Positions 16,301 to 64,000 of a stretch of 64,000 nt of DNA are shown here, in pieces. Each line of letters begins with the position of its first letter. The stretch's first letter is position 1. This DNA comes from Mobula hypostoma (lineage: Eukaryota): the NCBI RefSeq assembly GCF_963921235.1, contig NC_086097.1, positions 99,450,001-99,514,000 on the forward strand, written 5' to 3'. The notes beneath the pieces were generated by a model. That model was given only the letters and a program-made list of their open reading frames with translations. It was not told the DNA's origin and ran no database searches. Made by a program: the position numbers and the translations under genes.

Positions 16301-19300
16301 TTATTACAGTGATGGCTGTGGGGTACACCAGAGTGTTGCAGTCAGGGCTGTGGGGTACTCCAGTTTATTACAGTGACAGGCGTGAGGTACTCCAGTTTAT
16401 TACAGTGAAGGGTGTGGGGTACTCCAGTTTATTACAGTGAAGGGTGTGGGGTACTCCAGTTTATTACAGTGATGGGCGTGAGGTACTCCAGTTTATTACA
16501 GTGAAGGGTGTGGGGTACTCTAGTTTATTACAGTGAGGGATGTGGGGTACTCCTTTGGATTACAGTGAGGGGTGTGGGGAACTCCAGTTTATTACAGTGA
16601 TGGCTGTAGGGTACACCAGAGTGTTACAGTCAGGGCTGTGGGGTACTCCAGTTTATTACAGTGATGGGCGTGAGGTACTCCAGTTTATTACAGTGATGGG
16701 CGTGAGGTACTGCAGTTTATTACAGTGAGGGGTGTGAGGTACTCCAGTTTATTACAGTGAGGGATGTGGGGTACTCCAGAGTGTTACAGTGAGGGGTGTG
16801 GGGAACTCCAGTTTATTACGCTGAGGGCTGTGGAGTACGCTAGAGTGTTACAGTGAGAGGTGTGGGATACTCCAGTGTATTACAGTGTGGATTATATCAG
16901 TGGTTTACAGTGAGGGGAGTGGGATACTCCAGTTTATTACAGTGAGAGGTGTGGGGTACTCCAGTTTATTACAGTGAGGGGTGTGGGGTACTCGATTGGA
17001 TTACAGTGAGGGGTGTGGGGTACTCCAGTTTATTACAGTGATGGGCGTGGGGTACTCCAGTTTATTACAGTGAGGAGTGTGGGGTACTCCAGTTTATTAC
17101 AGTGATGGACGTGGGTTACTCCAGTTTATTACAGTGAGGAGTGTGGGGTAGTCCAGTTTATTACAGTGATGGACGTGGGTTACTCCAGTTTATTACAGTG
17201 AGGAGTGTGTTACAGAGTGTTACAGTGAGAGGCGTGGGGTACTCCAGTTTATTACAATGAGGGGTGTGGGGTACACAAGAGTGTTACAGTGAGGGCTGTG
17301 GGGTACTCCAGTTTATTACAGTGAGGGATGTGGGGTACTCCTTTGGATTACAGTGAGGGGTGTGGGGAACTCCAGTTTATTACAGTGAGGGCTGTGGGGT
17401 ACACCAGAGTGTTACAGTCAGGGCTGTGGGGTACTCCAGTTTATTACAGTGATGGGCGTGAGGTACTCCAGTTTATTACAGTGAAGGGTGTGGGATACAC
17501 CTGTGTATTACAGTGTGAATGATATCAGTGGTTTACAGTGAGGGGTGTGGGATACTCCAGTGTATTACAGTGTGGATTATATCAGTGGTTTACAGTGAGG
17601 GGAGTGGGATACTCCAGTTTATTACAGTGAGAGGTGTGGGGTACTCCAGTTTATTACAGTGAGGGGTGTGGGGTACTCGATTGGATTACAGTGAGGGGTG
17701 TGGGGTACTCCAGTTTATTACAGTGATGGGCGTGGGGTACTCCAGTTTATTACAGTGAGGAGTGTGGGGTACTCCAGTTTATTACAGTGATGGACGTGGG
17801 TTACTCCAGTTTATTACAGTGAGGAGTGTGGGGTAGTCCAGTTTATTACAGTGATGGACGTGGGTTACTCCAGTTTATTACAGTGAGGAGTGTGTTACAG
17901 AGTGTTACAGTGAGAGGCGTGGGGTACTCCAGTTTATTACAATGAGGGGTGTGGGGTACACAAGAGTGTTACAGTGATGGGCGTGAGGTACTCCAGTTTA
18001 TTACAGTGAGGGATGTGGGGTACTCCTTTGGATTACAGTGAGGGGTGTGGGGAACTCCAGTTTATTACAGTGAGGGCTGTGGGGTACACCAGAGTGTTAC
18101 AGTCAGGGCTGTGGGGTACTCCAGTTTATTACAGTGATGGGCGTGAGGTACTCCAGTTTATTACAGTGAGGGGTGTGGGATACACCTGTGTATTACAGTG
18201 TGAATGATATCAGTGGTTTACAGTGAGGGGTGTGGGATACTCCAGTGTGGATTATATCAGTGGTTTACAGTGAGGAGTGTGGGGTACGTCAGTTTATTAC
18301 GGTGTGGATTATATCAGTGGTTTACAGTGAGGGATGTGGGGTACTCCAGAGTGTTACAGTGAGGGGTGTGGGGAACTCCAGTTTATTACGCTGAGGGCTG
18401 TGGAGTACGCTAGAGTGTTACAGTGAGAGGTGTGGGATACTCCAGTGTATTACAGTGTGGATTATATCAGTGGTTTACAGTGAGGGGAGTGGGATACTCC
18501 AGTTTATTACAGTGAGAGGTGTGGGGTACTCCAGTTTATTACAGTGAGGGGTGTGGGGTACTCGATTGGATTACAGTGAGGGGTGTGGGGTACTCCAGTT
18601 TATTACAGTGATGGGCGTGGGGTACTCCAGTTTATTACAGTGAGGAGTGTGGGGTACTCCAGTTTATTACAGTGATGGACGTGGGTTACTCCAGTTTATT
18701 ACAGTGAGGAGTGTGGGGTAGTCCAGTTTATTACAGTGATGGACGTGGGTTACTCCAGTTTATTACAGTGAGGAGTGTGTTACAGAGTGTTACAGTGAGA
18801 GGCGTGGGGTACTCCAGTTTATTACAATGAGGGGTGTGGGGTACACAAGAGTGTTACAGTGAGGGCTGTGGGGTACTCCAGTTTATTACAGTGAGGGATG
18901 TGGGGTACTCCTTTGGATTACAGTGAGGGGTGTGGGGAACTCCAGTTTATTACAGTGAGGGCTGTGGGGTACACCAGAGTGTTACAGTCAGGGCTGTGGG
19001 GTACTCCAGTTTATTACAGTGATGGGCGTGAGGTACTCCAGTTTATTACAGTGAAGGGTGTGGGATACACCTGTGTATTACAGTGTGAATGATATCAGTG
19101 GTTTACAGTGAGGGGTGTGGGATACTCCAGTGTATTACAGTGTGGATTATATCAGTGGTTTACAGTGAGGGGAGTGGGATACTCCAGTTTATTACAGTGA
19201 GAGGTGTGGGGTACTCCAGTTTATTACAGTGAGGGGTGTGGGGTACTCGATTGGATTACAGTGAGGGGTGTGGGGTACTCCAGTTTATTACAGTGATGGG

Positions 19301-20140
19301 CGTGGGGTACTCCAGTTTATTACAGTGAGGAGTGTGGGGTACTCCAGTTTATTACAGTGATGGACGTGGGTTACTCCAGTTTATTACAGTGAGGAGTGTG
19401 GGGTAGTCCAGTTTATTACAGTGATGGACGTGGGTTACTCCAGTTTATTACAGTGAGGAGTGTGTTACAGAGTGTTACAGTGAGAGGCGTGGGGTACTCC
19501 AGTTTATTACAATGAGGGGTGTGGGGTACACAAGAGTGTTACAGTGATGGGCGTGAGGTACTCCAGTTTATTACAGTGAGGGATGTGGGGTACTCCTTTG
19601 GATTACAGTGAGGGGTGTGGGGAACTCCAGTTTATTACAGTGAGGGCTGTGGGGTACACCAGAGTGTTACAGTCAGGGCTGTGGGGTACTCCAGTTTATT
19701 ACAGTGATGGGCGTGAGGTACTCCAGTTTATTACAGTGAGGGGTGTGGGATACACCTGTGTATTACAGTGTGAATGATATCAGTGGTTTACAGTGAGGGG
19801 TGTGGGATACTCCAGTGTGGATTATATCAGTGGTTTACAGTGAGGAGTGTGGGGTACGTCAGTTTATTACGGTGTGGATTATATCAGTGGTTTACAGTGA
19901 GGGGTGTGGGGTACCCCAGTGGATTACAGTGTGGATTATATCAGTGGTTTACAGTGAGGGATGTGGGGTACTCCTTTGGATTACAGTGGGGGGTGTGGGG
20001 TACTCCAGTTTATTACAGTGACGGGTGTGGGATACACCAGTGTATTACAGTGTGAATGATATCAGTGGTTTACAGTGAGGGGTGTGGGATACACCAGTGG
20101 ATTACAGTGTGGGGTGTATCAGCATGATAGAGTGAGAAGT
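10345..20140 (+). repeat. ~9.8-kb minisatellite, ~32-bp unit (cagtgaggggtgtggggtactccagtttatta) with higher-order repeats
   Basis: Visible tandem array. Matching ORF translations recur at 17328/18898 and 18013/19583, giving a 1570-bp period. Confidence 0.97.
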
Positions 20141-36324: not shown

Positions 36325-36420
36325 CAACACACATCAAAGTTGCTGGTGAACGCAGCAGGCCAGGCAGCATCTCTAGGAAGAGGTACAGTCGACGTTTCAG
36401 GCCGAAACCCTTCGTCAGGA
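36325..36420 (-). mobile_element. Short Penelope-derived element with hammerhead core
   Basis: Near-identical to the 46044 arm. The minus strand reads CTGACGA-AGGGTTTCGGCCT-GAAACGTC-GACTG. Confidence 0.75.
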
Positions 36421-36770
36421 AGGTCCTTTGAAGGTCCAGGAAGGGTCAGACAAGCCTCCATACCATTTCTTATCCACTTATATCATTCAGTTTCTCGTTA
36501 CTCTCCAACATCACAGATCTTCCTCTGTTCTGTCTACAGCCTCCCCTTTCTCTGCAACTGAAAATGTTTGATTTCTATCTTTTCTATATTGCAATGAAAG
36601 TTCAACAACTGAAACATTATCTCTGTTTATCTCTCCACAGATGCTGCCTGACCTCTTGAATATTACCAGCATTCTCTATTTTATTTCAAAAATCAAAGGT
36701 TTGAGCCATCACTTAAATAAGACTGTCTCCTAGACCGTGTGATATTCTTAGGGAGAATTTGTGAAGTTAC

Positions 36771-36928
36771 CTTGAACAGGATTTCTGTTGTCATGGTGTA
36801 ACCGTGTGTGATGATGGGCTCCTCCTCGGGTGGCTTGCCTTTCCAACAGTCAAGCTCCAGACAGCGACACCCAGCAAGGAGGACCTGCCGATACATCTCC
36901 GGGGATGAAAGCCCAGAGAACTGCCCGG
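36771..36928 (-). CDS. PLCB2: PLCB2-like exon, X domain ([53 protein letters not shown])
   Basis: 158-bp exon flanked by cacacag and gtaact. GCRC.ELDCW and THG motifs. AGQFSGLSS and KGKPP are PLCB2-like. Confidence 0.95.
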
Positions 36929-39900
36929 CTGTGTGGACAGCAGAGAAGATCAACATTAAAGGGAGGAACACTCACGGACTCTTTGGCTGAACAGAGAATA
37001 CTCAAGAAGAACGTGATTCATCACTGAGTGTTTGTTCAGCAGTTCTACACAAGATCTGCACACACCATGGAATACAGGACCAGAATTCGGCCATTCAGCC
37101 CAGCAAGTCTGCTCTCCTACTCAATCACTGCTGATTTTGTTTTCAACTCCAACTCTTTCTCTGTCAAGAACTTATCAATCTCTGCTTTAATCATACCAAA
37201 TGACTTGACCTACACAACCTTCTGTGGCAACAGATTGCACTCTGGCTGGGAGAAATTCCTCCCCATTTCAGTTTGAAAGGAACATGCCTTTATGCCCTCA
37301 GATCCTAGACTCTCCGACTACTGGAAATATCCTAACCATGGCCATACTATCCACCAGGCCTTTCGGTATCCACTAGGAGATTCCCCCCCCCCCCCCACTT
37401 CATCTTCTGAAGTCTGTCAAGGAGAGAACCATCAAGAACTCCTCATATATTAAGTTTTTCATTCCAGGTGAAACTCCTCCAGAGGTGGCACATTTTTCCA
37501 TAGATACAGGGCCTCAAATTGCACACCATATTCCAAATACGGTCTGAACACCTTATAAACCCTCAGCAGTGCATTTTGTTTTTATATTCTAGTCCTCTCG
37601 AAGTCAATACTACTGCTGCATTTGTCTTCCCTACTACTACACATCTACTCAGTACAAGTTTCCATTAATGAATACATGTTCAGATGTGCCACACGTGTTC
37701 TGCACACACACGATCAATATGGACACAAGGCCTTCTTTGCTTTGCATTGGGGGAGCTAAAACAGTGTTTTGCAGGATGCTAAAGCTGTTTTTTAACATGC
37801 CAGTTTGGTGTGCATCTTCAAACGTGACTGCATTTGACCATGCAACTGCAACCTCAAGAATCAACGAGACAGTCCAACCACACAAGCAGCACTTCTGATG
37901 CAGTAGACCGGAGGGATATAGATTGCTGAGACACTAGAACCAGTTCTGGAGAAGGTGGGACCTGGACAAGCAAGGGGTGTTTGTTAGTACTTTTGGAGAA
38001 GGTTTCTAAAATGGGATAAAGTGCATAGTGACTAGGGAGAGAGAAGTAAGGATGAGTGAAAGGAAAGAAACAGCAGGATATGAAGATAGGGAAATGAAGG
38101 TCGAGGCAAATAGAGGCACAGCACAAAAAATGTCGGATGATTGGGAGAAAAAACCTGGGCTAGAGATGTTTTATCCATTTGGGTAGATGTTAAAAACAGC
38201 AAGGGAAAGAAGGCACTGGTAGGAGTAGTGCATGGGTCTGTAACCAGAGGCTGCACTGGGAAAAATCAATAATTAATGACAACATGTAAAAAGAGCAGTG
38301 CACTGATTATGACAGAATTCAATACTTATGTAGATTGAGTTGATCAAGTTGGAAATGGTAGCTCTGAGAACTAATTCCAGAGTGCATTGAAGATACATCC
38401 AAACACCAATATACTATGGAGTCAGCATGGGAGGTGGCTGTCATCAACAACTGACATGACCTCATGGGAAAACTAGCAAGGGATAGATAAATGGAAATGA
38501 TTTTCTTTAAATGTGTAAAAAGGAGAACGTGGTCCATGTGAACATAGCCCCTTAGAGAAAAATGTCGGGGAAATAGTTGTTGGGAACAAGAAAATGGCAG
38601 AGCAGTTAAACAGGTTTTTATGGTAGACAATATTACGAACATCCCATTAATAATGAATAATGCTAGGGAAGAATTAAAAGCAATTTCCGAGAGTAGAGAA
38701 CCAGTACTTGGGAAAATAATGGCTAAAGCCTAATATTCTCTATACTGATCAGCAGGACTTTCCTGCTTTCATACTCCAACCCCCATGAAATAAGGAACAG
38801 CGTTCTATTAGTGTTTTTGTGTGGTTATGTTCGTGTTTCAAGCACCTGGGCTCCCACATTTCTTCCATATGCAGCTTTTTGCAGTTTTTTGCCTCTTAAA
38901 TAGCTCTCCTTCCGTGTTTCTTCCCAAAGTGAACGACTCACATTTTCCCACCTTATGCTTGACCTATTTGATTTTTGCTCAGCTACCTACCTAACCTATT
39001 ATTATCTCTCTGTGAATTATTTATATCTTCTTCAGAACTTGCCTTTACACATATTTTTGTCTGCAAATCTGAAAATGCATGTTCATAACCTTCCTAGGAA
39101 TCTAGTAAATGGTTGCAACACCAGAACTGTTTGCAGTGGTATCCCAACAGATTAGCAACCTGTGAAACGGAGACACCTCTTTTTCCCTTATTAACAGGAG
39201 AGTGAGCCTGTGGTATGTCGAGCACCGGGTGAATGAGTAGTCTTTGGAGTACTGCAGGTCTGTGTCTTTGCTGTTGCTTTGCTGCACGCTTGAGTGCTCG
39301 GTGGTGAGTGCCAATGCTTTTTTTTGCCGGTGGCGGTGGGGGGAATTGTTGCTTGCTGCCGCTTACGCGCAGGAGAGAGGGTTGCTGGGGGAACTTTGAC
39401 ATTCTAACATTTACCTGTCATTCATTCTTTGGGGCACACCTCTGTTTTCATGGATGGTTGCGAACAAAAAGCATTTCAGGAAGTATATTGTATACATTTC
39501 CCTGATAATAATTTCCTTTGATAATAATCTCCTTTTCCCCTACTATCTGCTTCCTATCTGTTGGTGAATCCTTTATCCATGCCAACATGTCAGACCCAAC
39601 ACCACAGGTGCTTGTGACTCCACCTCAAGTGAGGAATCCAGTTAATTGTTGTCTGGAAATCCAAACTCAGTACATCTCCTGGTTCACTCCATCCACAATA
39701 GTGAAACTTCCTCCAAAAAACTTAATAAATCGGTCAGGGACCATTTCCCTTTGTGTAGCTATTCACGGCATTCAGGAAGACCACATCTGGAGTAATGTAA
39801 ATGGTTTTGATTCCTCTCTTTAAGATACGGTTCAGACTTCACCAGGATTGTCCTGCTAGAAGAGTTAAACAGATTGGGATTCCAGTCAGCACAGTGATTC

Positions 39901-42800: not shown

Positions 42801-42891
42801 AACATAATGAGCTCTGGATGAATTTTGTCAAAGACCTGTCCCCTAGCCTCCCACCCCTTTATTTGAGTGATTCAAAAGCCAGTGCTTTTAC

Positions 42892-43038
42892 CAGTGAGGT
42901 AGGTGTTATGGGATGAATTGATGGAGTAACTTGACAGAGGCTGCGTCATGTCCTGATAAACGGTCAGCCTTTCGGGGAATATAAGGCTGTTTTCTGGGCC
43001 AGACAGATACCAGCATAACCCCTCCAGTGACAAGTGAC
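42892..43038 (-). CDS. PLCB2: PLCB2-like exon, start of catalytic X domain (GHLSLEG...[20 protein letters not shown])
   Basis: 147-bp exon flanked by ctcacag and gtaaaa. Contains SSHNTYL with the first catalytic His. Confidence 0.95.
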
Positions 43039-43239
43039 CTGTGAGGGAAATAAAAGAAGACAAGGTCAGCATCTGACCTCAACGTGCTGATGTGGATCGC
43101 AAGCTGCCCAGTGCTGTTTACTGAAATATTTATCCCCCGTTCCAATTCCCATCAATGGGCACTAAGCAGGAGCTTACAGATCTCAGAACCACAGAACTGT
43201 GTAACCTCTACAGGGAATCATTGTATTCCACTTAACCAT

Positions 43240-43919: not shown

Positions 43920-45014
43920 CCCTCTGGTCATAGAAACCTCTGGTCGTAGACGCCTCTGGTCATAGAAACCTCTGGTCATAGAAACCTCTGGTCATAGAGG
44001 CCTCTGGCCATTGACACCTCTGGCCATTGACGCCTCTGGTCATAGAGGCCTCTGGTCATAGAGACCTCTGGTCATAGAGGCCTCTGGTCATAGACCCCTC
44101 TGGTCATAGACACCTCTGGTCATAGAAACCTCTGGTCACAGACACCTCTGGCCATAGACACCTCTGGCCATTGACGCCTCTGGTCATAGACCCCTCTGGT
44201 CATAGAGGCCTCTGGTCATAGAGGCTTCTGGTCATAGACGCCTCTGGTCATAGATGCCTCTGGCCACAAACGACTCTGGCAACAGACACCTCTGGCCACA
44301 GACGCCTCTGGCCATAGACGCCTCTGGCCATAGAAGCCTCTGGCCATAGAAACCTCTGGCCATAGACGCCTCTGGTCATAGAAACCTCTAGTCATAGAAA
44401 CATCTGGCCATAGACACTTCTGGCCATAGATGCCTCTGGTCATAGACGCCTCTGGCCATAGACACCTCTGGTCATAGACACCTCTGGTCATAGAGGCCTC
44501 TGGTCATAGAGGCCTCTGGTCATAGAAACCTCTGGTCATAGAGGCCTCTAGTCATAGAAACCTCTGGCCATAGACACCTCTGGCCGTAGACGCCTCTGGC
44601 CATAGACACCTCTGGCCATAGACGCCTCTGGCCATTGACGCCTCTGGTCATAGACCCCTCTGGTCATAGAGGCCTCTGGTCATAGACGCCTCTGGTCATA
44701 GATGCCTCTGGCCACAAACGACTCTGGCAACAGACACCTCTGACCACAGACGCCTCTGGCCATAGACGCCTCTGGCCATAGAAACCTCTGGCCATAGACG
44801 CCTCTGGTCATAGACGCCTCTGGCCATAGACACCTCTGGTCATAGACACCTCTGGTCATAGAGGCCTCTGGTCATAGAGGCCTCTGGTCATAGAAACCTC
44901 TGGTCATAGAGGCCTCTAGTCATAGAAACCTCTGGCCATAGACACCTCTGGCCGTAGACGCCTCTGGCCATAGACACCTCTGGCCATAGACGCCTCTGGT
45001 CATAGAGGCCTCTG
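43920..45014 (+). repeat. 16-bp minisatellite (cctctggYcatagaNN), about 68 units
   Basis: Direct tandem array. The variant block gccacaaacgactctggcaac recurs about 448 bp apart. Confidence 0.96.
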
Positions 45015-45595
45015 CTATGTGGTCAAAGACTCTCACTGTTCACTGTACCCTTGCACTTCAGGACACTCCCTCAGCCCTCTCCTCGATGTTCTTCACTGGC
45101 CCAGGCAAGTTGAGTGTATTCCATCAGGGACCTAACCTGCCCTTTAATCAGTGCGGAAACTTTGAAGTGAGGGGACAGATCAGTTGGTGTAGGGCATGCA
45201 GCCTTTCAGGGGCGGGCATTGCCATCTCAGATGCAGACCTCGGTGTGTCATCGTACTTCATGTGAGTCACACTGGCAGCCAGGCTGAGACCACCGAGTCC
45301 GTTGCCAGGCTAATGAAGTTTGTGGCTCGATGGCGATGGTGGAAATACCTCTTCCATCATCTAAGAAATCCCCTGAGTACTCAAGCACAGCCTGGATAGA
45401 TATCGCAACACACTTAGTGTTGCATCACTTCAAGTGGACTGCCAGGAGGGGGAATTGGACATATTATGAAGTATCTAACCCTCTGATTCACTAAATTGTC
45501 GAATAGAACTGACCTTTGACCTTGGATCTCTATGGATACATAAACAGGAGTGTTTTTTTTCACCTGAGAACATTGGGAAATACAAGAACACTGAC

Positions 45596-45762
45596 CCTTA
45601 TTTGCATTTGATTTGTTCAGCTCATACTTCTCTATCAGCTTCTGGGTTTGTTCCGGTTGTATTAATGGAAAAAGAAAATTATTCAGACGGGCATCTCTCT
45701 GTATCTGGTTTATAAACGTAGACACCTGCTGCCGAGTCAAGTACGGCTTTACCATTACGTCC
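45596..45762 (-). CDS. PLCB2: PLCB2-like exon, EF-hand ([32 protein letters not shown]...NANK)
   Basis: 167-bp exon flanked by ttttacag and gtcagt. KPY..FIN..QRD.RLN motif of PLC-beta. Phases fit both neighbours. Confidence 0.92.
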
Positions 45763-46043
45763 CTGTAAAAAAGAAAACAGTGAACTCAACACCTGGTCTG
45801 TAAACTCAGTTCTTCCCAGCATGTATACATTTCATTTTATCGCGTGTACACAAGGCCCAGGTAGACAACCTTATCATGGAATTGAATCACCACACAGCCC
45901 ACAAGCACACACTCTGTCTTATCTTCTTACACTCCGCATACACAAACAATGTTTCTTCTAACTCTTTTTACAGTTGTACAGACCAAGCATTGCTCTGAGC
46001 AGGAAATGTTTATACGGCCTGAAAACTCCACGGTGTGTTAAAT

Positions 46044-46273
46044 CAACAAACATCAAAGTTGCTGGTGAACGCAGCAGGCCAGGCAGCATCTCTAGGAAGA
46101 GGTACAGTCGACGTTTCAGGCCGAGACCCTTCGTCAGGACTAACTGAAGGAAGGCCGTCGGCCTGAAACGTCGACTGTACCTCTTCCTAGAGATGCTGCC
46201 TGGCCTGCTGCGTTCACCAGCAACTTTGATGTGTGTTGCTTGAATTTCCACCATCTGCAGAATTCCTGTTGTT
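46044..46273. mobile_element. Penelope-derived fold-back non-autonomous element
   Basis: 81-bp inverted arms at 46044-46124 and 46158-46238. 12-bp TSD ggtgtgttaaat. Confidence 0.88.
46106..46141 (-). ncRNA. Minimal type-I hammerhead ribozyme motif (Penelope-type)
   Basis: The minus strand reads AGTC-CTGACGA-AGG(GTCTCGG)CCT-GAAAC-GTC-GACT: stem I, conserved core, stem II, palindromic stem III and a GUC cleavage triplet. Confidence 0.75.
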
Positions 46274-46699
46274 GGTGTGTTAAATGTTCTTTTTTGTAAT
46301 GTGCATACTATGAATATTTAGATTGAAAATTTAAAAACCACATACTTTTGATTTTATTTAATTGAAGGGTGCAATGAATTATAATACAAAAAATAAAATC
46401 TTTCATGTTTCATAAACTTGTTGTAGCTGCTTCCAATACCAGCTGCATGGCAATGAAGGCTATGTGCACGGGAGCATTTCAGTTACTGCACGGCTGTGCA
46501 ACTGCATAGCTTAGAGGGAACAGTGTACACAAGCACATCCCTTAGCAGGTATATAATGTGCTCTCACAGTTGACAGACACGTCATCTTACGTCGACCAAG
46601 CCCCAGTATTCAATCCCCTTCCACAGTCCACTAAAAGAGAACGCACAGGAGAAAGTAGCCACCAGCTCAACTTTCAAAGCTATCCGGCTACGCTTCCGA

Positions 46700-48075
46700 T
46701 CACAAACTAGAGAAAATCTGCAGATGCTGGAAACCCATGCAACAGACACAAAATGCTGAAGGAACTCAGCAGGCCAGGCAGCATCTATGGAAAATAGTAC
46801 AGTCGATGTTTTGGGCCAAAACCCTTCGGCAGGACTGGAGGTTTCAGCCCCAAGTGTCAACTGTACTTTTTTCTATAAATGCTGCCTGGCCTGCTGCATT
46901 CCTCCAGCATTTTGCATGTGTTGCTTCCATTTCCAATACCAACAGTGACCCAGCCTCCAAAGCCTTCAGAGATAGTACTTTGCTGAGGTTCAGCACCCTC
47001 TGTAGGAAATTCCTGTGAACTGCCATTTTAAATGACTGCCCCTCATCTTGTAACTCTGTCCCTCATTCAGGGCTCTCCCACTTGTCATACTCCCTCAGAT
47101 GATTCAACAAGGTCAATCCATCATTGGAGTGTAAAAGTCACACAACACAGAAATGGCCCCTTTTGTCAAAGAATACAGATAACACCTTTTCTTTTGGATA
47201 ACCTCTTACCCCAGGAACCAAATCCTTTGGGCTGTTTCCAGTGCTACAGCGTCTTTTCTTAAATAAGGGAAACAAGACTGTTCTGAGAACTCCAACAGTG
47301 ACCTCAATAGACAGCACAACTGTGCTAACACTTAATTCCTTTTTAAAAACAAGAGAAAATCTGCAGATGCTGGAAATCCAAGTAACACACACAAAATGCA
47401 GGAGGAACTCAGCAGATGAAGGGTCTCGGCCCAAAACGTCGACTGTTTACTCTTTTCCATAGATGCTGCCTGGCCTGCTGAGTTTCTCCAGTATTTTGTG
47501 TGTGTTGCTAACTACTTTTAAAATTCTGACCCCTGAACAAAAAAGCTAACGTGCCATTTGCCTTCTTAGTTACTCAGTGTACCTATCTGCGAACTTCTTG
47601 TGATTCACACAGCAGAACACCTTCATCCCTCTGAATGCCACTCACCTAGTCTGCCTGCACTTTGATAATGAGCTGCCTTTTGATTGCTCTTACCAGAGAG
47701 TGCGACCTCACCCTTCCCCACACTGCACTCCCTTTGCCAAGATTTTGTCCAATCACTCAGTCTATCTACATACAGTCCAAGTATCGTCTTGTTCACACTG
47801 CCTTCCACCTATCATTGGCAAATCCAGAAACCTGATGCTCTGCCCCTCTACCAGGGCACTGAATACCTGAAGACCAAGAAACACACAGCAAATGCTGGAG
47901 GAACTCAGCAGGCCAGGCAGCATCTATGGAAAAAAGTACAGTCGACGTTTCCGTCCGAAACCTTTCAGCAGGTCCCGAAACGTCGACTGTACTTTTTTCC
48001 ATGGATGCTGAGCTCCTCCAGCACTTTGTGTGTGTTGCTTGGATTTGCAGCATCTGCAGATTTTCTGGTTTGTGA
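46700..48075. mobile_element. Three further fold-back Penelope-derived elements (~46700-46930, 47345-47510, 47880-48075) among CR1 remnants
   Basis: Repeated 'gctggaggaactcagcaggccaggcagcatc...cagtcgacg' in inverted pairs. Confidence 0.78.
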
Positions 48076-49094
48076 TCCGAGGACCAACCACTGATCCTTG
48101 GGGCACTCCACTATCTACACCATTAAAGCCTGAAAAAGACCAGTGTCTCCCAGCTATCTTGCTCAATAATGTTAGCACACTTCCCTCAATAGGCTTCACA
48201 CTTTGCCCTGTGTGAATGAACCCAGGATTCAATTCCCTTTAATATGCACATGCACATTATCCTACAAGGACCGACCCCCTGTATTCAGTGAACTCCCAGA
48301 GTCTATGCACACGCTGCCCTGTATGGACTAACCCCCACATTCATCTCCCCCCACCCACACAAAGTGCATGTATACACCAGATTACATCCTCCCCGTCTTC
48401 CTTTCCTCCACTCCCAACTCCCAATGACACAGTGACTAAAGCCCCCGTGCCTGCCGTGCAGTCCACAGGGTGTGCCGTACAAGAAACCTCACCTGGGGCA
48501 TTTACTGATGTGGATCACAGACTTTAACAAACAAACTGGATTCTCTCCGGCTATACCCCAACAAACAATTTATTGATGGTGCCTCCAAGAAGCACTGGAG
48601 TGGAATTCCTGCCTCTGAGGCCCAGCTTTCCCACACTGAACATGTTAGTGGTATATTAACGCCAGCCCTGGCAAGACCAACGGGGTCACAGCACGATAGG
48701 TGCCATCCACACCCCCCTCACCCATCCGGTTTGCCAACACAACGTACACTCACCCAGCTTGTATGGGCCACACGGGGCAACAACTTTCACTCAAAGTTGG
48801 AAGCAAATCAGCACAGCTAGCACCTGAACTTTCTAATTTAACCCTCCCGCTAAACTTTCTGAAAAGGAATACTCAGCTCCAAACCTCATGGATGCAAGGG
48901 CTGTCTGAATACCAGGCTAGTCACTTTTACTGAGAGCATGTACTTCTGGGCAAGAACCTCGGGAACACAACACATCCCTGGGTCAGCATTCATCAAACTG
49001 TGCGGGCCCCGGAGCCCACAATGTTGTGTCAAAATAAATAAATGAATTAATGCCTAACTAAACTCCTCTCTTCTAGCTACACAATGTTTATATG

Positions 49095-50345
49095 CAACAC
49101 TCACAACACGCTGGAGGAACTCAGCAGGTTGGGCAGCATCCGTGGAAACCATCAGTCAACATTTCGGGCCGGAATCCTTCGTCAGGACTGAGGACATCTG
49201 CTCCCAGGATGAGGCTTTCCATTCCAGGACATCTCAAATGTCCTCTTTCTTTAAAGATCGTAGTTTCCCTTCTGCCGTCATCAATTATGCCCTCACCCGC
49301 ATCTCCTCTATTTCCCGCACTTCGGCCCTCACCCCATCCTCCCGTCACCACAACAGGGACAGAGTTCCCCTTGTCCTCACCCATCACCCCACCAGCCTCT
49401 GGATCCAGCACATTATCCTCCGCAACTTCCACCACCTTCAACAGGACCCCACCACTAAGCACATCTTTCCCTCTCTACCCCTCTCCGCTTTCCGCAGGGA
49501 TCGGTCCCTCCATGACTCCCTGGTCCACACGTCCCTCCCCATGGATCTCTCACCTGGCACTTATCCCTGTAAGCGTAAGTACTACACCTGACCCTACACC
49601 TCCTCTCTTGCCACCATTCAGGGCCCCAAACAGTCCTTCCAGGTGAGGCAACACTTCACTTGTGAGTCCGTTGGGGTCATCTATTGCATCCGGTGCTCCC
49701 GGTGCAGCCTCCTCTACATCGGTGAGACCCGACGCAGATTGGGGGACCGCTTTGTCGAGCACCTCCACTCAATCCACCAGAACAGACAGGATCTCCCAGT
49801 AGCCACCCACTTCAACTCTGCTTCTCATTCCCATTCGGATATGTCCATACATGGCCTCCTCTACTGCCATGATGAGGCTAAACTCAGGTTGGAGGAGCAA
49901 CACCTCATATACCATCTAAGTAGTCTCCAGCCCCTTGGTATGAATATAGAATTCTCCAGCTTCCAGTAATTCCTTCCCCCTCCCTTCCCCTATCCCAATT
50001 TCACTCTGCCCCCTCCCCCAGCTGCCTATCACCTCCCTCACGGTTCCGCCTCCTTCTACTACCCATTGTGTTTTCCCCTATTCCTTCTTCACCTTTCCTG
50101 CCTATCACCACCCCCACCCCTTTATCTTTCCCCTTACTGGTTTTTCACCTGGAACCTACCAGCCTTCTCCTTCCCACCCTCCCCCCACCTTCTTTATAGG
50201 GCCTCTGCCCCTTCCCTCTTCAGTCCTGATGAAGGGTTCCGGCCTGAAACATTGACTGATCGTTTCCACGGATGCTGCCTGACCTGCTGAGTTTCTCCAG
50301 TGTGTTGTGAGTGTTGCTTTGACCCCAGCATCAGCAGAGTATGTT
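49095..50345 (+). mobile_element. 5'-truncated Penelope-like element with GIY-YIG endonuclease and inverted pseudo-LTR
   Basis: 'GVIYCIRCSRCSLLYIGETRRRLGDRFVEH...P.GMN' (GIY-YIG). 49095-49190 is an inverted copy of 50221-50318. Confidence 0.9.
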
Positions 50346-50791
50346 GTGTTTACAATGTCTATATCCCTCCATTCCGGGCACATTCATGTGCCTACTTAAC
50401 AGCCTGTTAAATGCCTCTATTGTATTTGCCCCCACCACCACCCCTGTGAGCTCATCCCAGGCACCCACCGCTCTCTGTGTAAAGAAACTTGCTCCACACA
50501 CCTCCATTGCACCTACCCCCTTCTCAACAAATGCATGCCCTCTAGTTGTAGACATTTCCACCCTGCCTACCCTATCAGTGCCTCTCACAATCTTATAAAC
50601 CTCTATCAAGTCAATCCTCAGCCTCCACTACCCAGAGAAAACAACCCTACTCTGTTCAGCCTGTCCTTATAGAGCCAGTGTAATAGTGGGAGGTCTGTAA
50701 GCAACCCTTATCACAGATAGACACACCAGTACATGTACTGCTTCTTCGTTCATGCAGAATCAGAAGGGGACAGTTTACTAAAGTGTCTCAC

Positions 50792-50892
50792 ATTAATTCA
50801 AAGATCTGGTCAATCTCGGGCCGAGGACACAGCTGTGTTATAAATTGCTTGAAGACCGATTCTGTGAAATCTTCAGGATTGATTGTGTCATT
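50792..50892 (-). CDS. PLCB2: PLCB2-like exon ([33 protein letters not shown])
   Basis: 101-bp exon read manually (not in the ORF track), flanked by cttgcag and gtgaga. Contains the conserved PLC-beta LCPRPEID motif. Confidence 0.92.
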
Positions 50893-52432
50893 CTGCAAGG
50901 GAGCAGGTGGGGGGAAAAAGCACATCTTTCAGTAATGATCCATTCATTCATAGCTATGCACAGCCTCCTCTTTCTAAAAAAACTTGCAGAAAGCACAGGA
51001 GGCTGGAAAGGGTCTGCAACTCAGTGTCATAATTTCAGAGTGAGGCCTCCTCTTTGGTGTCATCCCATCCTGTCCCCAGCAGCCTTGCCTGAGCTGGAAG
51101 TCTGCTTGCCCACTCATCAAGCCCGATCTTTGTTCTGACTATCTACACTTCACCCAGTCAGGAGTCTTTCCTGCCCAGGATATCTCCTGATGAAAGGTTT
51201 GTGAAATGTGCTAAGTCATACCTGGGCTGGGGTACAGTGCACAGTATCAGGGCATGAGAGAAAGTAAAGCTGGCTACAGGCACAAAGGCAAACTTGGTGA
51301 TGGAACATTGCAGTCACAGAGCACAGCGGAAGCACTAGTTTCGGCTTTTAGGTAACATCTGCTACTAAAGGAATCTGCTGCGTTCAACTGTCAGGAGTCA
51401 GTAAATTCTCCTGCTGTAATTTTGATCATGTCTGGACATAGAAGAGAACTTTCCCAAATTATCCTTGGTTTTCATCGGGTCACTTTTCTCCTCCAGGGCA
51501 GAGAGAGTAATAGTCCGCGGGGCATAAGGTGATCAGTAGTTTTTGTACATTTGGAAGTGTATAAAATTATTAAATGCTAATGAAACAGAAAATGAACAAA
51601 GAATGAAATGCTGATGATAAAAGAATAGATCTAAAACATTTAATACAAAACCTAGCTGTCAAGGTGTAATAAAAAGTCTGAAACAGGACCTTTTCCCCAG
51701 TCTTAATTGAGACACACAGAGAGGTGTGAGCCAATCTAACAGTTAAAGCAGAAAATAAGCCAAACATTAAGAATTAAACTGGAAATTGAAGAAGTGTGCG
51801 TGATGGTAAAGAGGAGATGTCAAACTTGAACCAGAACAGTAAAGCACAGAAACAGGTCCTGTGACCTGCAATGCCTGTGTCAACCATGACACCAGTTTAA
51901 CCCTAATTCCATCTACCTGCTCCTGATCCACAATCTGTCATCCCCTGACTATTCATAAAGCTGTATATATACTTAAACGTCCATGTTCGTATCTGCTTCC
52001 ATTGCCTCGCCTGGCAGGATTTTCCAGGAACTTACCCCTGTGTAAAATAAAACTTACCTTGCAAATCCCTTGTTAACATTCCCCCTCTCACCTTAAAAAT
52101 ATGCATTCTAGGAGTTGGTATTTCTGCCTACTTATGTGATCTGTACTGCTCATAATGTTATAAATATCTAAAAGGTCTCCCCTCGCCTCTGAAACTCTAG
52201 AGAAAACAATCTAAGTTTGTCCAGCCTCGAAGGTAATTAATATATTTATTTTTAAATTTTATTTATTTAGAGATACAGAACAGAGCAGCCGCACCACCCA
52301 GCAACCCACCTATTTAACCCCAGCCTAACCAGGGGACAACTTACAAAGACCAATTAGCCTACTAACTGGCAGTCACGGGGAGAAGGAACAAACTCCTTAC
52401 AGAGGACACTGGATTTCAACTCCGAACTCTGA

Positions 52433-55408: not shown

Positions 55409-55729
55409 ACCCTAACTGTGAATAAAGCCAAACATTCCTCCAGGGCCAAACTGCACACAGCACACAGCACACAGTACACAGCACACAGCACACAGTACAC
55501 AGCACACAGCACACAGTACACAGCACACAGTACACATTACACAGCACACCGCACACCACACACCGTACACAGCACACAGCACACAGAGCAACGCACACAG
55601 TACACAGTACACAGCACACAGCACACAGCACACAGCACACCACACACGACACACCGTACACAGCACACAGCACACAGCACACAGTACACAACACACAGCA
55701 CACCGTACACAGCACACAGTACACAGCAC

Positions 55730-57911
55730 AAGACCTACAAGATCAACAAGGACTACAAGATCTTCGCCCGGGCAATGGCCAACCGTCTGGGTTCGGTAAT
55801 TGGACAGGTGGTCCATCCTGACCAATCTTACACAGTCCCGGGCCGCTCCATCCAGGACAATGTCCACCTAGTACGGGACCTGATCCACTTACTCCAGGAG
55901 ACTGGGACCCCGGCAGCGTTTCTTTCTCTTGACCAGGAGAAGGCGTTTGACCGGGTGGACCACAGTTTCCTGCTGGGCACCCTGCAGGCTTTTGGGCTCG
56001 GACCACACTTTGTGGCCCGAGTTCGGCTCCTGTACTCTGCTGCAGAGTGCCTAGTTAAGATTAACGGATCATTGACAGGACCTATCCACTTCCGAAGAGG
56101 AGTGCGTCAAGGGTGCCCCATGTCCAGTCAACTGTATGCGATCTGTGTCGAGCCATTCCTCAGCCTTCTTCGGCGAAGGCTGACAGGTCTGGTTCTGCGC
56201 GAACCGGACATGGGGGTCGTCCTCTCGGCCTACGCCGATGATGTACTCCTCATGATGACAGACCCCTGTGACCTGTGGAGGATGCGCGAGTGCCAAGATG
56301 TTTTCTCGGCGGCATCCTCCGCCAGGATCAACTGGGCGAAATGTTCCGGACTCTTAGTAGGCCAGTGGCAGGTAGACTCCCTGCCGGAGGAGATGAGAGC
56401 TTTTGAGTGGAGCACCAGACGTCTTCTCTATCTGGGAGTCTGCCTGAATCCTTCTGGGGAGACCTGGCTGGCGAACTGGCAGAACCTGGAGACAAAGGTC
56501 ATGGCCCGGCTAGGGCGCTGGTCAGGCCTTCTCAGGGTGCTTTCCTATCGAGGCAGGGTGGTGGTCATAAACCAGCTGGTGGCCTCCATGTTGTGGTACC
56601 GGATGGTCACCTTGGCACCCCCCCCCCGCCCCTTTTGTTGCGAGAATGCAGAGGAAGCTAGTGGACTTCTTCTGGGGAAACAGGAAACACTGGGTCTCTG
56701 CAGCGGTTCTGAGTCTCCCAGTAGGAGAGGGCGGACAGTCGCTGGTGTGTGTACGCACACGACTGGCGGCTCTCCGCCTCAGGACTCTGCAGAGATTCCT
56801 GTATGCCGAGCACCCTCCCAGGTGGCACGTGTTGGCGACTTTCTTCCTCCGGAGGGGCTGCTGTCTTGCCGAAGATATTCAGCTACCGCCGGCGGGTGTC
56901 AGCCGTGCTGCTTTGCAGAGGCTGCCAGGCTTCTATCAGGACCTACTGAGAGTCTGGAACATGGTTGCCTCAGGCCGGGAATCCCCTCCTCTGGCAGAGG
57001 GCGGGGTCCTGGCCGACCCTTGCCCTGCCTCAGCGGATGTCGGTGCGGCTCAGGTGTGTGGATCGACTCAAGCTGAACTGCTCGTCGGGCCCAGGCCCCG
57101 CAGCCTTACCCGAGAGACGAATCCACACAACTTGAGCCGTCTCTCATTCAGGGATGCAGGCAGGAGGTACCTTTATGGGCTATTGCTCCACACCCTCCAC
57201 TTCCTAGCCCTTGTCCACCGTCCCGACACGCCATGGCGGTCGGTCTTCCCACCTGGAGGTGAGGGGGGTCCCCAATGGAAGTCCCTTTACAAGGGAGTCC
57301 TTCCCATGCACCTCGGGGATCTCGGCTGGAGGGTGCTGCATAAAGTGGTGCCCTGCAATAAGTTCTTTAGTCTGTACACGGATCTCCCAGCCGCGTGTCA
57401 CTTCTGCGGGTTGGAGGAGACTGTGTACCATATGTACGTGGAGTGTGTGAGGTTGCAGCCTCTTTTCGCGTATTTGCGTGGGCTGCTTCTCGCCTTCTGG
57501 TTGCATTTCAGTCCCACCCTATTCATATATGGTCATCCAGTAAGGAGGGGGGCACAGAGGGATGAGGATGTCCTTGTCAACTTGCTCCTGGGGCTGGCGA
57601 AAATTGCCATCCGTGGCTCCTGGAAAAGGGTGGCAGGAGGTTCTCTCAGGGCGGACTGCCTGGCTATGTTTAGGGGGTATGTTCGTGCCCGGGTGAACAT
57701 TGAAAAGGAATACGCACAGTCCACGGCGACCGTAGAGGTGTTCCCGGACCGTTGGGCTCCGCGGGGTGTAAATGCCATCATTGATGAGGATGGCAATATA
57801 TTGGTTTAAGATGTATTGTCTGTTTGTAGTGTAGTAAATATGTTAGTCACTGGTTTTGTAAATATTGTATAGCACCGACATTTGTAATAAAGAATTTTGT
57901 TTAAAAAAAAA
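55730..57911 (+). mobile_element. Tx1-like (L1 clade) non-LTR retrotransposon, 5'-truncated copy 1
   Basis: RT motifs 'DYKIFA..LDQEKAFD..GVRQGCP..AYADD', a C-terminal 'CHFCG..ETVYH...C' zinc motif, AATAAA and poly(A). One frameshift in a C-run near 56620. Confidence 0.92.
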
Positions 57912-58789
57912 GTACACAGCACACAGCACACAGTACACAGTACACAGTACACAGTACACAGTACTCAGTACACAGCACACCGCACACCACACCACACAGT
58001 ACACAGCACACAGCACACAGTACACAGCACACAGTACACAGTACACAGCACAGAGCGCAACGCACACAGTACACAGTACACAGCACACCGCACACCACAC
58101 CACACAGTACACAGCACACAGCACACAGTACACAGCACACAGCACACAGTACACAGTACACAGCACACAGTACACAGCACACAGCACACAGTACACAGCA
58201 CACAGTACACAGCACACAGCACACAGCACACAGTACACAGCACACAGTACACAGTACACAGCACACAGCACAAAGTACACACCACACAGTACACAGTACA
58301 CAGCACACTGTACACATCACACAACACACAGTACACAGCACACAGTACACAGTACACAGCACACAGCACACAGTACACAGTACACAGTACACGGCACACA
58401 GCACAACGCACACATTACACAGTACACAGCACACAATACACAGCACACAGCACACAGTACACACCACACCACACAGCACACAGTACACAGTACACAGTAC
58501 ACAGCACGCAGCACACCACACAGCACACAGCACACCGCACACCGCACACAGTACACAGCGCAATGCACACAGTACACAGTACACAGCACACAGTACACAG
58601 TACACAGTACACAGTACACAGCGCGCAGCACACCACACAGCACACAGCACACCGCACAACGCACACAGTACACAGCGCAACGCACACAGTACACAGTACA
58701 CACCACACAGCGCAACACACACAGCACACAGTACACAGTACACAGCACACAGCACACAGTACACAATACAAAGCACTCAGCACACAGTA

Positions 58790-59778
58790 TGTCCAGACAC
58801 ATGTCTGGAACATGGTTGCCTCAGGCCGGGAATCCCCTCCTCTGACAGAGGGCGGGGTCCTGGCCGACCCTTGCCCTGCCTCAACGGATGTCGGTGCGGC
58901 TCAGGTGTGTGGATCGACTCAAGCTAAGCTGCTCGTCGGGCCCAGGCCCTGCAGCCTTACCCGAGAGACGAATCCACACAACTTGAGCCGTCTTTCATCG
59001 ACACCCACAATCCCATTCAGGGATGCAGGCAGGAGGTACCTTTATGGGCTGCTGCTCCACACCCTCCACTTCCTAGCCCTTGTCCACCGTCCCGACACGC
59101 CATGGCGGTCGGTCTTTCCACCTGGAGGTGAGGGGGGTCCCCAGTGGAAGTCCCTTTACAAGGGAGTCCTCCCCATGCACCTCGGGGATCTCGGCTGGAG
59201 GGTGCTGCATAAAGCGGTGCCCTGCAATAAGTTCTTTAGTCTGTACACGGATCTCCCAGCCGCGTGTCACTTCTGCGGGTTGGAGGAGACTGTGTACCAT
59301 ATGTACGTGGAGTGTGTGAGGTTGCAGCCTCTTTTCGCGTATTTGCGTGGGCTGCTTCTCGCCTTCTGGTTGCATTTCAGTCCCACCCTATTCATATATG
59401 GTCATCCAGTAAGGAGGGGGGCACAGAGGGATGAGGATGTCCTTGTCAACTTGCTCCTGGGGCTGGCGAAAATTGCCATCCGTGGCTCCTGGAAAAGGGT
59501 GGCAGGAGGTTCTCCCCGGGCGGACTGCCTGGCTATGTTTAGGGGGTATGTTCGTGCCCGGGTGAACATTGAAAAGGAATACGCACAGTCCACGGCGACC
59601 GTAGAGGTGTTCCGGGACCGTTGGGCTCCGCGGGGTGTAAATGCCATCATTGATGAGGATGGCAATATATTGGTTTAAGATGTATTGTCTGTTTGTAGTG
59701 TAGTAAATATGTTAGTCACTGGGTTTGTAAATATTGTATAGCACCGACATTTGTAATAAAGAATTTTGTAAAAAAAAA
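58790..59778 (+). mobile_element. Tx1-like copy 2 (shorter 5' truncation)
   Basis: Nearly identical to the 3' part of copy 1 but retains 18 nt that copy 1 lacks. Has poly(A) and a 31-bp TSD-like flank. Confidence 0.92.
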
Positions 59779-61938
59779 GTACACAGTACAAAGCACTCAG
59801 CACACAGTACACAGCACACCGCACACAGTACACCGCACACAGCACACAGTACACAGTATACAGTACACAGCACACAGTACGCAGTACACCGCACACAGCA
59901 CACAGTACACAGTACACAGCACACAGCACACAGCACACAGCACACAGTACACAGCACACAGTACACAGCACACAGCACACAGTACACAGCACACAGTACA
60001 CAGTACACAGTACACCGCACACAGCACACAGTACACAGTACACAGTACACAGCACACAGTACACCGCACACAGCACACAGTACACAGTACACAGCACACA
60101 GTACACAGCACACAGTACACAGCACACAGCACACAGTACGCAGTACACAGCACACAGCACAAAGTACACACCACACAGTACACAGTACACAGCACACAGT
60201 ACGCAGTACACTGTACACAGCACACAGTACGCAGTACACTGTACACAGCACACTGTACACATCACACAGCACACAGTACACAGCACACAGTACACAGTAC
60301 ACAGCACACAGCACACAGTACACAGTACACAGTACACGGCACACAGCACAACGCACACATTACACAGTACACAGTACACAGCACACAATACACAGCACAC
60401 AGTACACACCACACCACACAGCACACAGTACACAGTACACAGCACGCAGCACACCACACAGCACACAGCACACCGCACACCGCACACAGTACACAGCGCA
60501 ATGCACACAGTACCCAGTACACAGCACACAGTACACAGTACACACCACACAGCACACAGTACACAGTGCACATTACACAGTACACAGCACACAGTACACA
60601 GTACACAGTACACAGCGCGCAGCACACCACACAGCACACAGCACACCGCACACCGCACACAGTACACAGTACACAGCGCAACGCACACAGTACACAGTAC
60701 ACACCACACAGCGCAACACACACAGCACACAGTACACAGTACACAGCACACAGCACACAGCACACAGTACACAGTACACACCACACAGCGCAACACACAC
60801 AGCACACAGTACACAGCACACAGTACACACCACACCACACAGCACACAGTGCAACACACACAGCACACAGTACACAGTGCACATTACACAGTACACAGCA
60901 CACAGTACACAGTACACAGCACACAGCACACAGTACACAGTACACAGCACACAGCACACAGTACAAAGCACTCAGCACACAGTACACAGCACACGGTACA
61001 CAGCACACCGCGCACAGTACACCGCACACAGCACACAGTACACAGTATACAGTACACAGCACACAGTACACAGCACACAGTACGCAGTACACCGCACACA
61101 GCACACAGTACACAGCACACAGCACACAGCACACAGTACACAGCACACAGTACACAGCACACAGCACACAGTACACAGCACACAGTACACAGTACACAGC
61201 ATACAGCACACAGTACACAGTACACAGCACACATTACACAGCACACCGCACACCACAGCACACAGTACACAGCACACCACACACCACACAGCACACAGCA
61301 CACCACACATAGTACACAGTACACAGCACACCACACACAGTACACAGTACACACCACACCACACAGCACACAGCGCAACACACACAGCACACAGTACACA
61401 GTGCACATTACACAGTACACAGCACACAGTACACAGTACACAGCACACAGTACACAGTACAAAGCACTCAGCACACAGTACACAGCACACGGTACACAGC
61501 ACACCGCACACAGTACACCGCACACAGCACACAGTACACAGTATACAGTAAACAGCACACAGTACACAGCACACAGTGCGCAGTACACCGCACACAGCAC
61601 ACAGTACACAGTACACAGCACACAGCACACAGCACACAGCACACAGTACACAGCACACAGTACACAGCACACAGCACACAGTACACAGCACACAGTACAC
61701 AGCACACAGCACACAGTACACAGTACACAGCACACATTACACAGCACACCGCACACCACACCACACAGTACACAGCACACAGTACACAGCACACCACACA
61801 CCACACAGCACACAGCACACCACACATAGTACACAGTACACAGCACACAACACACCACACAGCGCAACGCACACAGTACACAGCACACAGTACACAGCTC
61901 ACAGCATAATGCACACAGTACACCGTACAGAGTAATAC

Positions 61939-61978
61939 ATAGCACCGACATTTGTAATAAAGAATTTTGTTACAAAAA
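61939..61978 (+). mobile_element. Tx1-like copy 4, 3' terminus only (~40 bp)
   Basis: atagcaccgacatttgtaataaagaattttgt is identical to the 3' UTR end of copies 1 and 2, followed by A's. Confidence 0.85.
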
Positions 61979-62605
61979 GTACACAGCACACAGCACACAG
62001 TACACAGCACACAGTACACAGTACACAGTACACAGCACACAGTACACAGCACACAGTACACAGTACACAGCACACAGCACACAGTACACCGCACACAGCA
62101 CACAGTACACAGTACACAGCACAAAGTACACAGCACACAGTTCACAGTACACAGTACACCGCGCACAGCACACAGTACACAGTACACAGTACACAGCACA
62201 CAGTACACCGCACACAGCACACAGTACACAGTACACAGCACACAGTACACAGCACACAGTACACAGTACACAGCACACAGTACACAGCACACAGCACACA
62301 GCACACAGTACACAGCACACAGTACACAGTACACAGCACACAGCACAAAGTACACACCACACAGTACACAGTACACAGCACACTGTACACATCACACAAC
62401 ACACAGTACACAGCACACAGTACACAGTACACAGCACACAGCACACAGTACACAGTACACAGTACACGGCACACAGCACAACGCACACATTACACAGTAC
62501 ACAGTACACAGCACACTGTACACATCACACAACACACAGTACACAGCACACAGTACACAGTACACAACACACAGCACACCGTACACAGCACACAGTACAC
62601 AGCAC

Positions 62606-64000
62606 AAGACCTACAAGATCAACAAGGACTACAAGATCTTCGCCCGGGCAATGGCCAACCGTCTGGGTTCGGTAATTGGACAGGTGGTCCATCCTGACCA
62701 ATCTTACACAGTCCCGGGCCGCTCCATCCAGGACAATGTCCACCTAGTACGGGACCTGATCCACTTACTCCAGGAGACTGGGACCCCGGCAGCGTTTCTT
62801 TCTCTTGACCAGGAGAAGGCGTTTGACCGGGTGGACCACAGTTTCCTGCTGGGCACCCTGCAGGCTTTTGGGCTCGGACCACACTTTGTGGCCCGAGTTC
62901 GGCTCCTCTGTACTCTGCTGCAGAGTGCCTAGTTAAGATTAACGGATCATTGACAGGACCTATCCACTTCCGAAGAGGAGTGCGTCAAGGGTGCCCCATG
63001 TCCAGTCAACTGTATGCGATCTGTGTCGAGCCATTCCTCAGCCTTCTTCGGTGAAGGCTGACAGGTCTGGTTCTGCGCGAACCGGACATGGGGGTCGTCC
63101 TCTCGGCCTACGCCGATGATGTACTCCTCATGATGACAGACCCCTGTGACCTGTGGAGGATGCGCGAGTGCCAAGATGTTTTCTCGGCGGCATCCTCCGC
63201 CAGGATCAACTGGGCGAAATGTTCCGGACTCTTAGTAGGCCAGTGGCAGGTAGACTCCCTGCCGGAGGAGATGAGAGCTTTTGAGTGGAGCACCAGACGT
63301 CTTCTCTATCTGGGAGTCTGCCTGAATCCTTCTGGGGAGACCTGGCTGGCGAACTGGCAGAACCTGGAGACAAAGGTCATGGCCCGGCTAGGGCGCTGGT
63401 CAGGCCTTCTCAGGGTGCTTTCCTATCGAGGCAGGGTGGTGGTCATAAACCAGCTGGTGGCCTCCATGTTGTGGTACCGGATGGTCACCTTGGCACCCCC
63501 CCCCCCGCCCCTTTTGTTGCGAGAATGCAGAGGAAGCTAGTGGACTTCTTCTGGGGAAACAGGAAACACTGGGTCTCTGCAGCGGTTCTGAGTCTCCCAG
63601 TAGGAGAGGGCGGACAGTCGCTGGTGTGTGTACGCACACGACTGGCGGCTCTCCGCCTCAGGACTCTGCAGAGATTCCTGTATGCCGAGCACCCTCCCAG
63701 GTGGCACGTGTTGGCGACTTTCTTCCTCCGGAGGGGCTGCTGTCTTGCCGAAGATATTCAGCTACCGCCGGCGGGTGTCAGCCGTGCTGCTTTGCAGAGG
63801 CTGCCAGGCTTCTATCAGGACCTACTGAGAGTCTGGAACATGGTTGCCTCAGGCCGGGAATCCCCTCCTCTGGCAGAGGGCGGGGTCCTGGCCGACCCTT
63901 GCCCTGCCTCAGCGGATGTCGGTGCGGCTCAGGTGTGTGGATCGACTCAAGCTGAACTGCTCGTCGGGCCCAGGCCCCGCAGCCTTACCCGAGAGACGAA
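62606..64000 (+). mobile_element. Tx1-like copy 3, duplicate of copy 1, runs off the window
   Basis: Same 5' junction and upstream flank as copy 1 at an offset of 6876 bp. Carries an extra 2-nt insertion and a TGA stop. Confidence 0.92.

Follow-up and report, generated by a model that had tools for sequence, protein, structure and literature searches.

A hammerhead motif in a PLC-beta intron of Mobula hypostoma lies in a truncated fold-back Penelope-like insertion and is likely paired off by its own mirror arm

The intact-looking hammerhead motif in an intron of a PLC-beta gene of Mobula hypostoma is best read, at a probability of about 90%, as part of a truncated, fold-back pseudo-LTR (pLTR) insertion of a Penelope-like element (PLE), in which the hammerhead is predicted to be paired by its own mirror arm and likely never folds or cuts. 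The window, by which we mean the whole 64,000-nt stretch of DNA that was analysed, contains the insert as a 230-bp, 5'-truncated fold-back (46044-46273) flanked by a 12-bp target duplication.

The motif is a minimal hammerhead of the PLE type. Read directly from the window, the minus strand from 46141 to 46106 is AGTC CTGACGA AGGGTCTCGGCCT GAAAC GTC GACT, letter for letter as an earlier, sequence-only reading had given it, and comprises stem I (AGUC/GACU), the core CUGACGA, an extra A, stem II (GGGU/GCCU) with a CUCG loop, and GAAAC-GUC, with the predicted cleavage position at 46110/46109. There is no stem III loop; C15.2 directly adjoins G16.2, so helix III is possible only between two motifs. 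The core (CUGANGA, GAAA and an NUH triplet), a helix I of 4-5 bp, the palindromic 15.2-16.2 with its dimer-only helix III, the extra nucleotide between 9 and 10.1 and the location within the pLTR of a PLE all agree with PLE minimal hammerheads, and the earlier assignment to a dimer-only type I motif of Penelope-like pLTRs holds.

We rejected chance as the origin of the motif. A full minimal-hammerhead descriptor (stems plus palindrome) matched the window at 46106-46141 only and had no match in any of 200 first-order Markov simulations; the bare core pattern matched eight times in the window (3.07 expected). The covariance-model search suggested with the sequence-only reading gave no Rfam hammerhead match at E<=10 in the window or in a 71-nt stretch, and the scans of both returned unrelated chance matches only. 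Because minimal motifs lack helix III, this miss lowers the case for Rfam membership only.

Stem II pairs in a register different from the one first proposed (AGG/CCT). In 72 of the 79 sampled cores the stem II region is 13 nt long, and among these the first pair is formed in 70 when stem II is read as an extra A plus GGGU/GCCU, versus 44 in the earlier A-U register. Because this is the family register, the copy at 46106-46141 has G10.1-U11.1 and not the G10.1-C11.1 pair, a usual but not obligatory trait of PLE minimal hammerheads that is called highly conserved in a passage of PMC4209133. The G-U wobble is present in 43 of the 72 cores, and the 11.1 site is T in 40 and C in 9 of 49 young copies covering it. 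The wobble of this subfamily probably goes back to a source copy in which a CpG changed and which kept transposing.

The insertion has the architecture of an EN+ PLE insertion, with an inverted pLTR, a one-sided tail within the 30-40 bp range and a short target duplication (Table 1). A 95-nt inverted repeat, overlooked in the sequence-only reading, encloses the motif, and 46158-46238 pairs with 46044-46124 at 80 of 81 positions, 75 of them in one perfect run. The sense arm is identical at 105 of 109 positions to the pLTR of a copy with RT and EN (L201) and its first letters (46153-46144) belong to the pyrimidine tract and CAG of the element itself. On the minus strand, the 12-mer of the duplication is present at two places in the window, the two ends of the element. 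Joints that appear to skip the element (46034-46283) were rejected as evidence of an empty allele; the intervening letters differ, and the joints come from repeats on both flanks.

The 10 nt at 46144-46153 (minus strand) are the last of a branch-point-like sequence, pyrimidine tract and CAG that stand in full in L023-L050, with the CAG two bases before stem I. Here the remnant is inside the hairpin and was unused by the single spliced contig described below. The full arrangement resembles the intron end beside helix I in the D. virilis Penelope, as described in part of PMC4209133.

Table 1. Features of the window and of a parent copy, with the basis of each assignment
Feature	Position	Strand	Basis
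Minimal type I hammerhead motif	46106..46141	-	sequence read and descriptor match
Sense pLTR arm of the 5'-truncated Penelope-like insertion	46044..46153	-	sequence comparison with sister copies
Inverted pLTR arm, made first in host pre-mRNA	46158..46238	+	inverted repeat, pairs with 46044-46124
35-nt one-sided PLE tail on inverted arm	46239..46273	+	such tails described in parts of PMC8557442 and PMC11167929
Target-site duplication copy 1, 12 bp	46274..46285	.	12-mer found twice, at both element ends
Target-site duplication copy 2, 12 bp	46032..46043	.	12-mer found twice, at both element ends
PLC-beta EF-hand exon, 3' end approximate	45594..45762	-	best PDB match human PLCB2 232-284
Host intron, 5,029 nt, GT..AG	45763..50791	-	exon boundaries and spliced contig
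Upstream PLC-beta exon	50792..50894	-	Pfam PF22631, E 5.6e-5, below curated cut-off
Solo pLTR stub, same subfamily, truncated inside stem I	36325..36422	-	98% over 96 nt
Older related fold-back Penelope fragment, same intron as motif	49094..50317	+	inverted repeat and frames
RT-like then C-terminal GIY-YIG frames in parent copy	L201:5285-6696		atlas, RT motifs, Pfam

Folding predictions place the hammerhead at 46106-46141 inside a closed 81-bp hairpin. Nearest-neighbour prediction, which takes no account of helicases, editing or proteins, gives the insert a folding energy of -191 kcal/mol (z -23.7) and stem I a probability of ~1e-27 in context, and puts the cost of freeing the hammerhead at 44.5-47.4 kcal/mol; three solo copies become hammerhead-ready for 12.9-13.0 kcal/mol. 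Predicted folds of the growing transcript are already zipped once stem II and GAAA appear. With the mirror arm predicted to pair with it, the motif would likely neither fold nor cut the host RNA, and the fold-back stub at 46044-46273 is likely a young, ordinary and inert Penelope insertion. We rejected a domesticated intronic ribozyme; there is no stable helix III in the monomer, and the hairpin dominates the predicted fold.

The element endonuclease would have nicked an AT-rich site, with reverse transcription starting at one of two points 35 nt apart. Copying may then have halted just past the hammerhead and folded back, the second arm being made from the same template. In the pre-mRNA, the antisense arm is predicted to emerge first and to capture stem II, GAAAC, GUC and the 3' strand of stem I as each emerges, and the insertion would leave with the intron as neutral cargo.

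By sequence comparison, the motif is no stand-alone ribozyme: it belongs to the pLTR of a Penelope-like element with a very high copy number. A 46-nt pattern containing the whole motif has 24,117 exact matches in the 3.48-Gb genome (11,971 forward and 12,146 reverse), and the reversed pattern, used as a control, has none. The 20 closest genomic copies share the build of this insertion, with the tail on either arm, and all 20 are flanked by direct repeats of 8-16 nt (repeats of at least 7 nt were sought in 75-nt flanks, and the shortest may be chance). In 19 copies compared by eye, the two arms of a copy mostly share diagnostic letters that differ between copies. Most of 30 examined 46-mer loci run upstream into a common pyrimidine-rich 3'UTR, and upstream of the pLTR in sister copies this 3'UTR is followed by a GIY-YIG frame with a CX4CxxC linker (Pfam E 3e-4, just under the cut-off). 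L039/L040 is a 2.1-kb fold-back with GIY-YIG frames.

The parent copies combine an RT-like frame with a C-terminal GIY-YIG endonuclease, as EN+ PLEs do. In L201, the same pLTR stands behind an RT-like frame and a GIY-YIG frame with the CX4CxxC linker; the RT-like frame has an atlas score of 0.96 (RVT_1/HTH_animal clusters) and visible RT motifs, with no Pfam or PDB match. L201 is the longest copy retrieved and is itself 5'-truncated and frameshifted, and no complete element was among the copies retrieved. The linker precedes the endonuclease and falls within the Neptune pattern CX2-5CxxC, which is also found in Nematis according to a section of PMC8557442. Our literature search found no study of this Penelope-like family or of strand bias, and supplements, which lay outside its scope, may list the family.

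The fold-backs of this family often turn within ~30 nt of the front edge of the hammerhead, with 17 of 31 sense-side pairs turning at -20 to 33 nt.

The pLTR copies in genes have no strand bias. We sampled 160 stretches of 10 kb (46 segments, 1.6 Mb) in kinesin, myosin and PLC genes and searched them with a profile of natural pLTR copies. Gene strand was set by Pfam exon hits; some stretches reach up to ~40 kb beyond a listed hit, the order of hits is ambiguous in one segment, and genes nested within others were left in. There were 309 hits, about one per 5 kb, with 154 sense and 155 antisense. The sense share was similarly even among copies with a core (41/79), intact copies (20/39), strictly solo copies with no opposite copy within 2.5 kb (48/94) and unpaired copies with a core (17/33), and was 7/17 among unpaired intact copies, with a 95% interval (0.18-0.67) that excludes strong depletion only. 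In sense copies, nine non-CpG core positions were mismatched at 8.3% (73/876) versus 8.0% (95/1182) for twelve control positions; the corresponding values in antisense copies were 10.2% (85/835) and 9.8% (112/1139). There was no sign in the 1.6 Mb of selection for or against sense cores, at a power sufficient for a strong effect only. Neutral core decay and the lack of sense depletion fit ribozymes with no activity beyond the RNA-protein complex of the element itself. Cleavage inside an intron may be harmless if splicing proceeds co-transcriptionally.

If the sampled stretches (L051-L210) are typical, the pLTR density corresponds to several hundred thousand copies genome-wide. The same 1.6 Mb contains 18 head-to-head pairs with at least 90% identity over at least 60 columns, a possible source of long dsRNA.

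We think it very unlikely that this copy is active under special conditions, with the element protein, a helicase or A-to-I editing opening the hairpin and a cut being made together with any sister copy in the nucleus. The core is intact, partners are plentiful given the thousands of exact 46-mers, and protein-assisted cleavage by a PLE hammerhead in vitro is described in PMC11167929; in the sections concerned, the Anolis PLE hammerhead required the protein of its element for cleavage and was dispensable for insertion in vitro. However, solo copies face a much lower barrier than that of the predicted 81-bp duplex, sense cores are neither depleted nor differently decayed, and the same sections of PMC11167929 report no RNA-seq reads ending at the Anolis cut site. 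Passages of PMC4209133 report that monomeric minimal hammerheads did not cleave and that dimers cleaved weakly, part of a review (PMC6765202) agrees on the dimers, and PLE hammerhead cleavage in vivo is treated as an open question in sections of PMC8557442 and PMC11167929.

There is a similarly slim chance that the pre-mRNAs of this genome are seeded with silent Penelope hammerheads that the element protein could turn to dimer cuts, with the fold-backs self-silenced as an Alu-like, editable load of dsRNA. Free, intact, sense hammerheads number 7 in 1.6 Mb.

It is also very unlikely that the palindrome propagates itself as a MITE-like or retrozyme unit instead of arising anew as a side effect of each insertion. 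In favour of such a unit, full-length, near-identical palindromes of ~180 bp number at least 40, and many turn at the same place. However, the turning points seen in the gene sample span -20 to ~2,080 nt, the tail may be on either arm, the direct repeats measure 8-16 nt instead of being TA, and the arms vary together with the long-element subfamily. Non-LTR retrozymes consist of tandem units that each have a hammerhead, and here there are no tandem arrays, only a single fold-back between target duplications. Based on the variable turning points, the either-arm tail, the length of the repeats and the arms that track the long element, we rejected both a MITE and a retrozyme.

The hammerhead motif is in the sense orientation relative to a PLC-beta transcript. 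The sequence-only reading had named the gene PLCB2; the orientation stands, and PLCB2 remains a candidate identity as the best match of the EF-hand exon among solved structures (E 9.6e-13 versus 5e-11 for PLCB3). There are 343 nt between the motif and the start of the host exon (45762), in agreement with the ~345 nt first estimated, and PLC-beta X-domain exons follow at 36.8 and 35.0 kb. A single 264-nt contig from run X1 (depth 9) joins 50894-50791 to 45762-45656 with no differences, a spliced junction without any insertion sequence, although the RNA status of the run is a guess and the contig does not establish that the source animal carried the insertion. None of the sequencing runs listed with matching sequence is catalogued as RNA, and runs X7, X8 and X9 had no match to the upstream exon, which speaks neither for nor against splicing. 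Contigs over the element pool thousands of sister copies and are silent on cut ends or A-to-I editing at 46106-46141.

That the motif and the copy at 36.4 kb cleave the PLCB2 pre-mRNA as a double hammerhead is the least likely reading and, in our view, barely credible. The sequence-only reading placed a second, near-intact core at 36386-36420 and suggested it as the dimer partner. This core (36387-36422, minus strand) is complete and on the same strand, but its stem I is half lost, with CUUC as the 5' strand and two of four pairs gone. In favour of the dimer, both copies keep a complete core and the ACGU palindrome and share the transcribed strand, and the half built on the core at 46106-46141 would keep all four stem I pairs. 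However, 9,684 nt and three exons, of which the middle one (near 42.9-43.0 kb) was identified by eye, separate the motif from its downstream partner. The double hammerhead (A+B) has a predicted energy of -5.9 kcal/mol, whereas the free dimer fold reaches -25.1 kcal/mol, and opening the hairpin would add a cost of ~47 kcal/mol. The absence of strand bias in genes also argues against it. We dropped the copy at 36.4 kb as a partner on account of its distance, the intervening exons and its broken stem I. The implied cleavage of host RNA fared no better, given the predicted hairpin, the lack of sense depletion in the family and the clean removal of the intron in one contig.

Pairs of free, intact, sense hammerheads occur elsewhere within one gene segment: L103-L109 at gene-oriented positions 59070 and 68271 (9.2 kb apart), and L071-L078 at gene-oriented positions 8167 and 71651 (63 kb apart). 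These are better candidates for a dimer test than the motif at 46106-46141.

Other repeats are common in the window. The intron that contains the solo stub follows the X-domain exon near 36771-36932, and the older fragment in the host intron has a GIY-YIG remnant (49592-49969, E 5e-5) and 101-nt inverted pLTR arms. Relics of pLTRs, differing in age, number at least 10 between 36325 and 50317; among them are the 1.2-kb fold-back at 49094-50317 and three palindromes (46728-46935, 47354-47509 and 47877-48066), and the relics of the host intron could form several competing duplexes. A probable PLC-beta exon that opens the X domain lies at 42875-43078 (minus strand) and differs where PLC enzymes typically have HYF. 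By eye, 55409-64000 contains non-LTR element fragments (RT and zinc-binding frames) amid long ACAGT/GCAC-type tandem arrays, which look like a satellite-targeting LINE, and 65-2543 (minus strand) contains a broken Gypsy-like LTR retrotransposon with gag, protease, RT and RNase H frames. Two tandem arrays are inside the gene (44219-45039 and about 11700-19500), one with a ~48-nt unit and internal palindromes and the other with a longer period.

The single copy at 46106-46141 is of little consequence. Were the PLCB2 pre-mRNA really cut here, a signalling gene would have acquired a switch derived from a transposon, but the evidence is against it. Intronic PLE hammerheads are so numerous in this genome that selection on them can be tested, and the family-level result is of modest value.

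The truncated fold-back insertion resembles several known systems. Like other PLE minimal hammerheads, the motif is type I with a short helix I, an extra nucleotide between 9 and 10.1, a palindromic 15.2-16.2 and no loop 3, and exists mostly as dispersed truncated copies, some in opposite-strand pairs; in contrast, its subfamily has a 4-bp stem II that opens with G-U, not G10.1-C11.1, and at least 24,117 exact copies, versus 4,000-9,000 minimal hammerheads reported for coelacanth and Xenopus. With the inverted, 5'-truncated EN+ PLE insertions described in parts of PMC8557442, PMC3846280 and PMC11167929, it shares head-to-head pLTRs, a tail on one arm (35 nt here, 30-40 bp known) and a target site in AT-rich DNA with a short duplication, and it differs in its extreme truncation to ~110 nt of pLTR and its turn just upstream of the hammerhead. 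The C-terminal GIY-YIG after a CX2-5CxxC linker and the hammerhead near the 3' end are like those of the Neptune/Nematis-type PLEs in a section of PMC8557442, a likeness of linker and layout. The amniote intronic hammerheads of RECK, CTCL and DTNB, as presented in part of PMC6155905, are also type I and sense in an intron, but are canonical and conserved across species, whereas this one is a young repeat copy (1/81 arm mismatch) without stem III, buried in a hairpin. Finally, the animal non-LTR retrozymes, in the portion of bioRxiv 10.64898/2026.07.22.740005 that covers them, have a type I hammerhead related to PLE pLTRs and a mild intronic deficit in Xenopus, given there without strand; they are tandem repeats with at least two hammerheads, in contrast to the single inverted insertion here.
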